Origin: Deltaproteobacteria bacterium
Lineage (GTDB): Bacteria > Bacillota > Syntrophomonadia > Syntrophomonadales > Syntrophomonadaceae
Direction: 5' to 3'
Length of the DNA: 32,000 bases
Assembly: GCA_050258735.1 (NCBI GenBank)
Contig: JBLMZJ010000057.1
Span: 1 to 32,000 of the forward strand
A model generated the notes under the pieces. It made no database searches and was not told where the DNA came from. It saw only the letters and a list, made by a program, of their open reading frames with translations. Below, piece after piece: positions 14,024 through 15,909 of this stretch. The translations under genes and the position numbers were made by a program. Positions within the stretch are counted from its first letter, which is position 1. Every line of letters starts with the position of its first letter.

Positions 14024-14073
14024 TTGCTGCAACTATGTTTTAATATTATCATAATATGCGTATATACGAATAT
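14024..14073 (+). promoter_or_regulatory. Putative sigmaA promoter with overlapping 20-bp palindromic operator upstream of arsR-hgcAB
   Basis: TTGCTG (14024-14029), a 17-nt spacer, then TATCAT (14047-14052). Immediately after comes ATATgCGTATATACGaATAT (14054-14073), an 18/20 palindrome placed where a repressor would block initiation. Confidence 0.45.
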
Positions 14074-14100
14074 GCTGAATTAAGAATGCGGGGTATGCAC

Positions 14101-14469
14101 ATGCTGGAACAGATCGTAAAACAATTCAAGGCTTTGGGGGAACCTACCCGGTTAAAAATCGTCAAGCTCTTGCAGGATAAGGAACTATGCGTCTGTGAAC
14201 TGGAAGCCCTGCTCGAGATGAACCAGCCGCGCATTTCCCAACATTTGAAAGTACTTAAAGAAGCCGGGCTGGTCAAAGAGCGCAAGATCAAGCAGTGGTC
14301 ATATGTTTCATTAAACGCGCTTTTGTCTGACGGCAAGCTGAGCGGTTTCGAGCACTTCATGGGCACTCCCCTGGCGAATATAGAAGACCTTTCAGCAGAA
14401 AGCCAGCGCTTGCAGGTGTGGCAAGAGGTCAAATGTGCCATCGGCTGTTCGGAATGTGACTGCAAATAG
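14101..14469 (+). CDS. arsR: ArsR/SmtB-family metalloregulator with CVC site and Cys-rich C-terminus
   Basis: FKALGEPTRLKIVKLL...ELCVCELEALLEMNQPRISQHLKVLKEAGLV (wHTH with alpha3 CVC). C-terminal KCAIGCSECDCK. The start is ambiguous (14086, 14095 or 14101). I chose 14101 for its spacing from GGGG. The ORF-track start at 14056 lies inside the predicted promoter/operator. Confidence 0.8.
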   Translation: MLEQIVKQFKALGEPTRLKIVKLLQDKELCVCELEALLEMNQPRISQHLKVLKEAGLVKERKIKQWSYVSLNALLSDGKLSGFEHFMGTPLANIEDLSAESQRLQVWQEVKCAIGCSECDCK

Positions 14470-14500
14470 GTATGGCTAAAAGAGAAAAGGGGGAAATACT

Positions 14501-15592
14501 ATGGCTTTTCAGAAGATAGATATGCAAACACCCGTCTGCTGTGGTACGGCGCCGATGCAAAATACTATCGCTGATACTCACTTTATCATCGGCAGATTGG
14601 CGGTTAGCGGGGGAGAGGTGCCATTGGTGTCGACCCGGCTAAGCTGGCGGGATCATTGGGGAACCTTTAAGGCGCGCTGGGATATCAACCGTATGAACTA
14701 TCTGGTGCAGCCCGGCTTATATGGAGTGGGAAATCCGACCCCGGATTCTCCGGTCCTGGTCAGCGCTAATTACAAGATGAGCTTTGATTATCTACGCCGG
14801 GAACTGTGCGGAATCGACGCCTGGATATTGGTTATCGACACCAAGGGCGTAAATGTGTGGTGCGCGGCCGGCAAGGGTACTTTTGGCACCGAGGAGATCG
14901 TAAGACGGATTGACCTGGTCAATCTGGCCGGGATAGTAGCACATAGAACCATTATTGTACCTCAGTTGGGTGCCCCCGGAGTGTCGGGCCACAAGGTGAA
15001 ACAGCAGTCTGGCTTTAAGGTAGTTTATGGACCGGTAAGGGCAGCCGATCTTCCAGTATTCATCAAGTCCGGGATGAAGGCTAGTCCTGCCATGCGCCAG
15101 GTCAATTTTGACCTGGTCGATCGACTGGTACTGACTCCGGTCGAACTGGTGGGGGTCATCAGGCCGCTTTCCATAGCCGCTTTGTTGCTCTTGACTCTAC
15201 AGGTGGCGGGATTCTTAACGGTCTCATGGGATATGGTCTATCCGTACCTGGGTGCCATTCTGACAGGGGCGGTAGGGGTACCCCTTTTGTTACCCATAAT
15301 ACCTGGCTGTTCATTTGCATGGAAAGGCTGGTTGTTGGGCGCCATCTGGGCCCTGCTGGTCATATGGCTGAACGGGTGGCAGTGGAGCGGCTGGGGTAAT
15401 ATTCTGCAGGCAGTTGGTTATCTGGGTATATTACCGGTGATATCTGCCTATCTAGCCCTCAATTTTACCGGTGCTTCTACCTATACCTCGCTATCTGGTG
15501 TACAGAAGGAGATGAAAACAGCCCTGCCGGCTATGGCCATAGTGTTTTGCCTGGGTATTGCCGCTTTTGGCGTTGTATGGATTGTTAAATAG
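14501..15592 (+). CDS. hgcA: Mercury methylation corrinoid protein HgcA
   Basis: Cap-helix motif GVNVWCAAGKGTFG, with Cys121 encoded at 14861-14863. CFeSP-like corrinoid-binding N-domain. C-terminal multi-helix membrane domain including NFTGASTYTSLSGV. Ribosome-binding site AAGGGGG. Confidence 0.9.
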   Translation: MAFQKIDMQTPVCCGTAPMQNTIADTHFIIGRLAVSGGEVPLVSTRLSWRDHWGTFKARWDINRMNYLVQPGLYGVGNPTPDSPVLVSANYKMSFDYLRRELCGIDAWILVIDTKGVNVWCAAGKGTFGTEEIVRRIDLVNLAGIVAHRTIIVPQLGAPGVSGHKVKQQSGFKVVYGPVRAADLPVFIKSGMKASPAMRQVNFDLVDRLVLTPVELVGVIRPLSIAALLLLTLQVAGFLTVSWDMVYPYLGAILTGAVGVPLLLPIIPGCSFAWKGWLLGAIWALLVIWLNGWQWSGWGNILQAVGYLGILPVISAYLALNFTGASTYTSLSGVQKEMKTALPAMAIVFCLGIAAFGVVWIVK

Positions 15593-15618
15593 AAGGATTG
15601 AGCTGGGAGGAATATATT

Positions 15619-15909
15619 ATGAAGCTAAGGTATTTAAAGAACGTAGTGACCCTGAACCTGGATGCCAGTAAATGTACTTCCTGCGGTATATGTCTCGATG
15701 TATGCCCCCATGAGGTGCTGGCGGAATATGAGGGACGAGTCAGTATAAAGAATCGTGATGCCTGTATTGAATGCGGGGCCTGTGCGCTCAATTGTCCGTT
15801 CTCGGCTATTACCGTGCGGGCCGGAGTGGGCTGTGCGGCAGCTCTTATAAAGGCAAGCCTGACGGGAGGCGAAGCGACCTGCGGGTGCAGCGAGGGTGGT
15901 TGCTGTTAG
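15619..15909 (+). CDS. hgcB: Mercury methylation ferredoxin HgcB (2x[4Fe-4S])
   Basis: Two CX2CX2CX3CP motifs (CTSCGICLDVCP, CIECGACALNCP), an additional Cys in GVGCAAAL, and a C-terminal ...CGCSEGGCC ending in the vicinal Cys pair. ATG at 15619 lies 8 nt after GGGAGG and 26 nt after the hgcA stop. Confidence 0.88.
   Translation: MKLRYLKNVVTLNLDASKCTSCGICLDVCPHEVLAEYEGRVSIKNRDACIECGACALNCPFSAITVRAGVGCAAALIKASLTGGEATCGCSEGGCC

Follow-up and report, generated by a model that had tools for sequence, protein, structure and literature searches.

An arsR-hgcA-hgcB locus with a candidate ArsR operator on a metagenomic contig probably derived from a spore-forming Bacillota

HgcA is a membrane-anchored corrinoid protein in which the thiolate of Cys121 coordinates cobalt from below, an arrangement that favours transfer of a methyl group to Hg(II). 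Methyl-tetrahydrofolate supplies the methyl group to Cob(I)-HgcA, which passes it, bound to cobalt, on to Hg(II), yielding methylmercury; HgcB provides the low-potential electrons that regenerate Co(I), and the Cys pair at its C terminus probably binds Hg(II). This mechanism of the family is credited to Parks et al. 2013 and later work. The hgcAB genes are used as a marker for predicting environmental methylmercury production, and each correctly identified and attributed copy is of some value. Here, we analyzed a 32,000-nt stretch (the window) of contig JBLMZJ010000057.1, a 46,817-bp contig of a metagenome-assembled genome (MAG) named "Deltaproteobacteria bacterium" in GenBank, which carries hgcA and hgcB directly downstream of an arsR gene. 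Taken together, the evidence makes it highly probable that this is a genuine and intact locus of an uncultured, spore-forming, Syntrophomonadaceae-like member of the Bacillota, with the three genes forming a presumptive autoregulated operon that was probably gained by its clade.

Among 31 experimentally confirmed methylators, 14 carry an arsR gene within three open reading frames (ORFs) upstream of hgcA. In Pseudodesulfovibrio, arsR-hgcAB is co-transcribed and the upstream regulator is conserved in 112 genomes. In P. mercurii ND132, ArsR2 regulates hgcAB and responds to As(III), As(V), and the build-up of S-adenosylhomocysteine (SAH), not to Hg; As(III)/As(V) induce arsR-hgcA, and deletion of hgcAB raises the sensitivity of the strain to As(V). 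Comparison with ND132, based on Parks et al. 2013, Goni-Urriza et al. 2020, and Gionfriddo et al. 2022/2023, revealed the same gene order (arsR, hgcA, hgcB) with an ArsR/SmtB winged helix-turn-helix regulator immediately upstream on the same strand, the same cap-helix Cys and membrane domain in HgcA, and the same ferredoxin motifs and CC tail in HgcB. The two systems differ in their regulators, as described below, and in their hosts: ND132 belongs to the Desulfovibrionaceae, whereas the window probably comes from a spore-forming Bacillota. Environmental surveys already report hgcA assigned to Syntrophomonadaceae, and the locus is real but ordinary, being of a kind published before and already named as such in GenBank. 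What our analysis adds is incremental: a delimited insertion site, a distinct ArsR subtype with a conserved candidate operator, and a doubtful taxonomic label.

The window contains arsR (14101..14469; ArsR/SmtB winged-helix regulator, 122 aa), hgcA (14501..15592; corrinoid protein, 363 aa), and hgcB (15619..15909; 2x[4Fe-4S] ferredoxin, 96 aa) as three ORFs on the plus strand, separated by gaps of 31 nt (arsR-hgcA) and 26 nt (hgcA-hgcB) and each preceded by a purine-rich Shine-Dalgarno sequence 7–9 nt upstream of its start. The three products belong to the ArsR/SmtB, HgcA, and HgcB families, none of the sequence features by which the Hgc pair is defined is missing, and the model E-values (4e-138 for HgcA, 2.5e-36 for HgcB, and 1e-26 for ArsR) are far beyond chance. 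A first-pass annotation, made from the letters of the sequence, had described a complete arsR-hgcA-hgcB module here and had named HgcA/HgcB-specific hidden Markov models (HMMs) as a check; both curated cut-offs were passed, with HgcA scoring 459.9 bits against the NCBIfam equivalog HgcA_corrinoid (NF040863; cut-off 275) and HgcB scoring 123.4 bits against NF040864 (cut-off 99). The proteins are identical (100% for HgcA) to the GenBank entries MGE5390278.1, "mercury methylation corrinoid protein HgcA", and MGE5390279.1, "mercury methylation ferredoxin HgcB".

The cap-helix motif NVWCAAGKG occupies positions 14852..14878 (plus strand; HgcA residues 118–126), and Cys121, the predicted lower axial Co ligand, is encoded by TGC at 14861–14863, exactly where the first-pass annotation had placed it. 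With N(V/I)WCA(A/G)GK and a strictly conserved Cys as the motif criterion, which the window HgcA matches, NVWCAAGK was present in 115 of 120 database homologues and in 83 of the 86 HgcA ORFs from the loci and the window. The corrinoid-binding domain (residues ~68–190) is cytosolic and is followed by a five-helix membrane domain (residues 212–362; nt 15134–15586). Hydropathy analysis showed five hydrophobic segments between residues ~209 and 363, and an AlphaFold2 model (44 homologues as input; pLDDT 81.6, pTM 0.70) comprised an alpha/beta corrinoid domain plus helices at residues 212–235, 243–263, 272–291, 297–325, and 331–362, so the C-terminal membrane domain claimed earlier was recovered by both approaches. 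The best PDB fold match to this model was the HgcAB model 9a0b_A (E 8e-20, 322 columns, 42% identity).

We weighed this assignment against the reading that HgcA is an ordinary large subunit of the acetyl-CoA-pathway corrinoid iron-sulfur protein (CFeSP), or a non-methylating HgcAB-like fusion paralogue, to which we give next to no credence. The CFeSP large subunit AcsC/CdhE (PDB 2h9a/2ycl, 4djd, 9fzy) has a homologous Rossmann-like corrinoid domain with a cap helix, corresponding to HgcA residues 68–190; Pfam detected the shared CdhD domain alone, and several database homologues bear the old name "acetyl-CoA synthase subunit gamma", both of which fit a CFeSP. However, HgcA scored 74.1 bits against the acetyl-CoA synthase gamma/CFeSP model NF003195 (cut-off 306) and 201.8 bits against the HgcAB-like fusion model NF043039 (cut-off 285), failing both, and hgcB is a separate gene. 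CFeSP large subunits were the only solved structures matched by the HgcA sequence, over residues 68–190 (123 residues) only, at 24–33% identity, and without the N-terminal 4Fe-4S or TIM-barrel part that AcsC/CdhE possesses; fold comparison of the HgcA model with CFeSP was likewise confined to the ~127-residue corrinoid domain (Foldseek rmsd 2.4–2.9 A over ~125 residues). AcsC/CdhE also lacks the five-helix membrane domain. Solved CFeSPs read SVLTAWAAGK (pattern SVLT(A/S)(W/Y)A.GK) where HgcA has NVWCAAGKG, with Thr in the cap helix in place of Cys, and the motif thus divides the two families as the first-pass annotation had held.

A phylogeny with a CFeSP outgroup, also named there as a check, gave the same answer. 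In a neighbor-joining tree of the 126-column corrinoid domain from 21 HgcAs and three PDB CFeSP fragments, a simple distance tree without bootstrap, the window HgcA fell within the HgcA group at 64–90% identity, whereas the CFeSPs (24–33%) lay across a long branch. On the HMM, tree, structure, and motif evidence we regard the question of HgcA versus CFeSP as settled in favor of HgcA; CFeSP identity is refuted by the HMM cut-offs, the partial alignment, the cap-helix Cys, and the membrane domain.

HgcB starts at the ATG at 15619. As the first-pass annotation had stated, it follows hgcA by 26 nt and carries two CX2CX2CX3CP motifs, CTSCGICLDVCP and CIECGACALNCP, at residues 19–30 and 49–60, together with a C-terminal CC pair within ...GGCC (Cys95, Cys96); a further Cys is at residue 72. 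Pfam detected the ferredoxin motifs, and CC was found within the last eight residues in 83 of 84 HgcB ORFs of related loci.

For arsR, the earlier call was right in strand and in a 3' end 31 nt upstream of hgcA but not in its left boundary of 14024, where an out-of-frame TTG runs into a stop. Orthologous loci were available in four further lineages (L001, a short locus; L081/L091; L082/L092; and L086, on a 257-kb contig). The ATG at 14056, which would give the longest ORF, was rejected as the start because its frame is closed by TAA in all four. In L081, L082, and L086, gene calling places the start of the orthologue at the counterpart of 14101 (122 aa), a TTG codon, and the PGAP record MGE5390277.1, "ArsR/SmtB family transcription factor", is 122 aa and identical to the window ArsR; on these grounds we place arsR at 14101–14469. 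A reverse-strand ORF at 14049–14465 that overlaps arsR was dismissed as a mechanical ORF without support. ArsR scored 92.6 bits against NF033788 (cut-off 55) and 72.9 bits against PF01022 (HTH_5; cut-off 22).

ArsR contains Cys residues at positions 30, 32, 112, 116, 119, and 121 only, with none between residues 32 and 112. Cys30 and Cys32 lie in the motif ELCVCELE and are invariant in 17 homologues (alignment A1). The R773/E. coli ArsR and CadC-type alpha-3(N) sensors likewise have ELCVC(D/E)L in the DNA-binding region of a small dimeric winged-helix repressor that acts at a palindromic operator at its own promoter (a candidate in the window), and the closest solved relatives of the window ArsR are CVC-bearing ArsR/CadC-type metal sensors. 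R773 ArsR differs in having a third Cys (ELCVCDLC, Cys32/34/37), since the position of Cys37 is Glu in the window ArsR; two Cys of the R773 site are reported to be sufficient. CadC has an N-terminal Cys that the window ArsR lacks, and the window ArsR has an extra C-terminal tail, C-X3-C-(S/R)-E-C-D-C-K (CX3CX2CXC; Cys112/116/119/121). This tail was confined to the hgc-linked orthologues in the alignment, where three of its Cys were invariant and the fourth was present in five of seven, and was missing from the ars-operon homologues. The nearest homologues not linked to hgc (50–55% identity) lie in classical resistance clusters: one (L087) neighbors a P-type ATPase, a CDF transporter, and Acr3, and another (L089) belongs to a cluster of DGC, arsR, a thioredoxin-like gene, Acr3, and LMW-phosphatase ArsC. 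R773 and CadC systems control an efflux pump or a reductase, whereas the genes linked to the window ArsR are hgcAB.

The described ArsR2 of ND132 (F0JBE8) has a different Cys pattern, with Cys47/49 and Cys86/88, the latter pair on the beta-strand before helix 4, and belongs to a Desulfovibrionaceae clade; the nearest outside homologues of the window ArsR are ars/metal-operon repressors. We scanned 80 species-representative hgcA loci and found an ArsR of the window type directly upstream of hgcA only in the window's own clade (L001). Bacteroidota hgcA loci in the same scan showed only weak ArsR-like matches, mostly several hundred to a few thousand nucleotides upstream. A general link between window-type ArsR and hgcA was therefore rejected in favor of a lineage-specific one. 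The Cys pattern unlike that of ArsR2 and the confinement of the type to the window clade suggest that different lineages seem to have recruited different ArsR-family regulators to hgcAB. A more specific scenario, in which a canonical ArsR of the ars-operon type came in with hgcAB, in an event separate from the recruitment of the Desulfovibrionaceae ArsR2, and acquired the four-Cys tail later, strikes us as doubtful and is put forward tentatively.

The DNA upstream of arsR contains a block that may serve as the operator. A candidate -10 hexamer of the arsR-hgcAB promoter, CATAAT (14050..14055, plus strand), was suggested by alignment of the upstream regions: at the equivalent position, L081 and L086 have TATAAT, with TTGATA or TTGAAT 18 nt upstream. 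The hexamer abuts a 21-nt block, ATGCGTATATACGAATATGCT (14056..14076, plus strand), that is identical in all five lineages, including the window; the sequence upstream of it has diverged. Within the block, the core CGTATATACG (14059–14068) is a perfect 10-nt palindrome, and the 16-mer at 14056–14071 differs from its own reverse complement at two mismatches. The block is unique in the window, in which 0.25 chance matches would be expected at ≤3 mismatches. It covers the expected transcription start, as would suit the operator of an autoregulated ArsR, for which we regard it as a candidate. A second perfect palindrome, of the 7-1-7 form ATATTAT-C-ATAATAT, was observed at 14043–14057 (plus strand), overlapping the -10 region; the window and L001 share it but L081, L082, and L086 lack it, which makes it less likely to be a functional operator.

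Several features plausibly delimit the three genes as a single transcription unit. Downstream of the stop codon of nifS1, which encodes a nifS-like cysteine desulfurase (12691..13863, plus strand), an 11-bp GC-rich hairpin at 13900..13925 (plus strand) consists of the inverted repeat GAACGCCAGGC-GGGA-GCCTGGCGTTC without a U-tract; the fold of 13861–13960 had an energy of -35.1 kcal/mol (z = -2.64 versus shuffles), and the hairpin is likely a transcript boundary. A promoter/terminator scan detected nothing above background inside arsR-hgcA-hgcB and none marking the arsR promoter. A search of Rfam found no riboswitch or RNA family in the whole window at gathering thresholds or in 13850–16130 at E ≤ 1.

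Downstream, a promoter-like block precedes nadA (15940..15985, plus strand), with ACACTAGTAAAAC at 15943–15955 and an extended -10-like element, TGATATATT, at 15967–15975. The window, L081, L082, and L086 all conserve the block despite hgcB-nadA spacers of 207, 375, 106, and 1327 nt, respectively, and the core of the block is identical in L081, L082, L086, L091, and L092. It was missing from the sister loci, described below, in which fdhD abuts nadA, and it had no Rfam match. Conservation across spacers of 106–1327 nt suggests that nadA probably has its own clade-specific promoter and regulator site and that the block sets the downstream border of the hgc unit. In L086, two opposite-strand genes, for a YopX-domain protein and a hypothetical protein, lie between hgcB and nadA (11913–12893, minus strand), indicating that this junction tolerates insertions.

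The short gaps, the Shine-Dalgarno sequence at each gene, the lack of internal signals, the hairpin after nifS1, and the separate block of nadA thus make a single arsR-hgcA-hgcB transcript plausible. The competing arrangement, in which ArsR controls itself only and hgcAB is expressed constitutively from a promoter that lies within arsR or directly downstream of it, would agree with the frequent description of hgcAB expression as constitutive and with ND132, where arsR2 and hgcA transcript changes do not mirror each other in enriched medium. We nevertheless find it very improbable, as the arsR-hgcA gap is just 31 nt and the order and spacing of arsR-hgcA-hgcB are retained in all five lineages. 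In addition, the sole plus-strand promoter-like match of the scan lies inside hgcA and occurs at background frequency, with no such site in arsR or the gap.

To place the locus in its genomic context, we compared the window with related loci. The order in the window is sigK, mnmA, larE, a methyltransferase gene, a nitroreductase gene, tcdA/thiF(-), a cell-wall-binding protein gene(-), copZ(-), copA(-), a DJ-1-like gene(-), cysK(-), fdhD, nifS1, [arsR-hgcA-hgcB], nadA, an rrf2-family regulator gene, nifS2, and nifU, followed by a homocysteine synthase gene, metA, a MOSC gene, a methyl-accepting chemotaxis protein (MCP) gene(-), and a pyrophosphatase gene(-), where (-) denotes the minus strand. 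The close relatives (L081, L082, L086, L091, L092, and L001) have HgcA proteins 80–85% and ArsR proteins 85–89% identical to those of the window, and the order fdhD-nifS1-arsR-hgcA-hgcB-nadA-rrf2-nifS2-nifU-...-MOSC is kept. Using NadA as a probe, we also retrieved ~20 sister loci from metagenomes (NadA 59–67% identical), in which fdhD ends a few bases upstream of nadA and, in most of them, rrf2, nifS2, and nifU come next where the contig reaches that far. hgcAB was found within 7 kb in none of these sister loci, and nifS1 is not in them. The gene for the nearest HgcA outside the clade (66% identical) is flanked by guaA and a GGDEF gene and lacks an accompanying arsR.

By this comparison of gene orders, the fdhD|nadA junction holds a clade-specific insert of ~3.4 kb that runs from nifS1 to hgcB (12650–16116, with spacers), and its gain by a small clade would be a simpler reading than loss. 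The GC content, GC3, and codon usage of arsR-hgcAB match those of the flanks, and a recent transfer was rejected on this composition. nifS1, which belongs to the clade-specific block between fdhD and nadA, scored 487.9 bits against TIGR03402, below the NifS equivalog cut-off of 530.75 and above the IscS-subfamily cut-off. It is 49% identical to nifS2 (17783–18958), and the idea of a recent nifS2 duplicate was rejected on that account. In L082 (330–616) and L092 (4653–4958), only a C-terminal remnant of nifS1 is left, so the extra cysteine desulfurase is dispensable in that lineage. The delimited insertion point, fdhD | nifS1-arsR-hgcAB | nadA, would document acquisition in a lineage that is common in anaerobic digesters and bioreactors.

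The taxonomic label of the contig is doubtful. The window encodes SigK (30–746, plus strand; 331 bits, above the equivalog cut-off of 298.65) and a SleB-like/cell-wall-binding protein (6094–6897, minus strand), and the closest genome match to the contig is a Syntrophomonadaceae MAG. These three observations indicate that the contig probably comes from an endospore-forming Bacillota and that "Deltaproteobacteria" is likely a mislabel or the contig was mis-binned. The source is an uncultured MAG, and we know of no close cultured relative. Wrong MAG labels of this kind mean that label-based taxonomic tallies of methylators can be wrong.

The observations can be combined into a model in which arsR, hgcA, and hgcB would form one autoregulated operon. 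An ArsR dimer would bind the palindromic block at 14056–14076, right after the -10 hexamer, and block RNA polymerase; binding of a thiophilic metal(loid), most likely As(III), to Cys30/Cys32, possibly with the C-terminal Cys cluster, would then release the repressor. The As(III)-type effector is suggested by the invariant ELCVC, the homologues in ars/metal clusters, the CVC-bearing solved relatives, and the As induction in ND132. The nifS1-hgcB span would have been gained between fdhD and nadA, within a conserved cysteine/Fe-S/methionine neighborhood, long enough ago to have left no compositional trace.

Several points weigh against this model. For this organism, we infer methylation, co-transcription, operator binding, and the effector alike. 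The window itself has a poor -35 element, TTGCTG, at a spacing of 20 nt, and for this reason the consensus scan made no call on the arsR promoter. The 21-nt block could be conserved as part of a 5' untranslated region (UTR), not as an operator. Neither the scan nor the folds gave a convincing intrinsic terminator downstream of hgcB, where the hgcB-nadA spacer folded no better than shuffles (z = -0.63), and read-through into nadA is thus possible. The Glu in place of the third Cys of R773 and the extra C-terminal Cys cluster mean that the effector could be other than As(III). ND132 hgcA is not induced by Hg, and its transcript level is no predictor of the methylation rate. As for history, the alternative to gain is loss of the block in a monophyletic sister group, and the choice between them hinges on the species tree.

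With regard to the signal, ArsR might instead be a thiol switch (persulfide/redox, BigR/SqrR-like) or a small-molecule sensor (SAH, SahR-like) that acts through Cys30/32 and the C-terminal cluster. The clade-specific CX3CX2CXC tail, absent from ars-operon homologues, would suit such a sensor, as would the sulfur-trafficking neighbors (two cysteine desulfurases, cysK, fdhD, nifU, and the MOSC gene) and the response of ND132 ArsR2 to SAH build-up as well. A match to the BigR sulfite/persulfide sensor model was weak, however, at 47.5 bits and far under the cut-off of 155, and ArsR, with only 122 aa, lacks the SAM-methyltransferase-like domain of SahR. Since the ELCVC motif and the closest homologues also indicate metal(loid) sensing, we consider a thiol or SAH sensor improbable. 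If the tail and the CVC site do sense a soft metal(loid), As(III) for instance or conceivably Hg(II), then ArsR proteins would have been recruited convergently to hgcAB in unrelated phyla, which would directly support a selected role of HgcAB tied to arsenic/thiophilic-metal stress, not carbon metabolism. The proposed arsenic link could be approached through this locus, where hgcAB is closely coupled to a second, independent subtype of ArsR and the candidate operator is sharply conserved.

A further question concerns what HgcAB is selected for. These genes may be true hgcAB in which Hg methylation is a side reaction and the selected role is halomethane dehalogenation, a one-carbon/methionine step, or an arsenic-linked transformation; ArsR control would then mirror the native role of HgcAB. 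According to a 2026 preprint, HgcAB in heterologous expression not only methylates Hg but also dechlorinates CCl4, and the ND132 responses to As and SAH build-up rather than Hg, the As(V) sensitivity of the delta-hgcAB strain, and the closeness of the window regulator to ars/metal-operon ArsRs all point the same way. The neighbors of the module also include cysteine, Fe-S, homocysteine synthase, and metA genes, but the flanking genes are found in sister loci without hgcAB too, and the sulfur/methionine adjacency may be accidental. On balance we think a side reaction possible but rather unlikely; it does not conflict with the family assignment and concerns physiology, which is beyond sequence to settle. 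Our preferred reading remains an intact hgcAB pair under a presumptive metal(loid)-responsive ArsR.

Finally, two features of the surrounding DNA were noted. Positions 1213–5384 and 10697–22188 of the window are unusually rich in genes for sulfur trafficking and Fe-S clusters, comprising mnmA, larE, tcdA/thiF, cysK, fdhD, two nifS genes, nifU, an Rrf2 regulator gene (CymR/IscR-like), the homocysteine synthase gene, metA, and the MOSC gene. Because the sister loci also have fdhD, nadA, rrf2, nifS, and nifU, much of this neighborhood is older than the hgc insert. A copZ-like small HMA-domain ORF with an MSCMHCV motif (7249–7467, minus strand) lies just downstream of a gene for a CopA-type P-type ATPase with two N-terminal HMA domains (7505–9937, minus strand), forming an ordinary copper-efflux pair ~4 kb from the hgc module.

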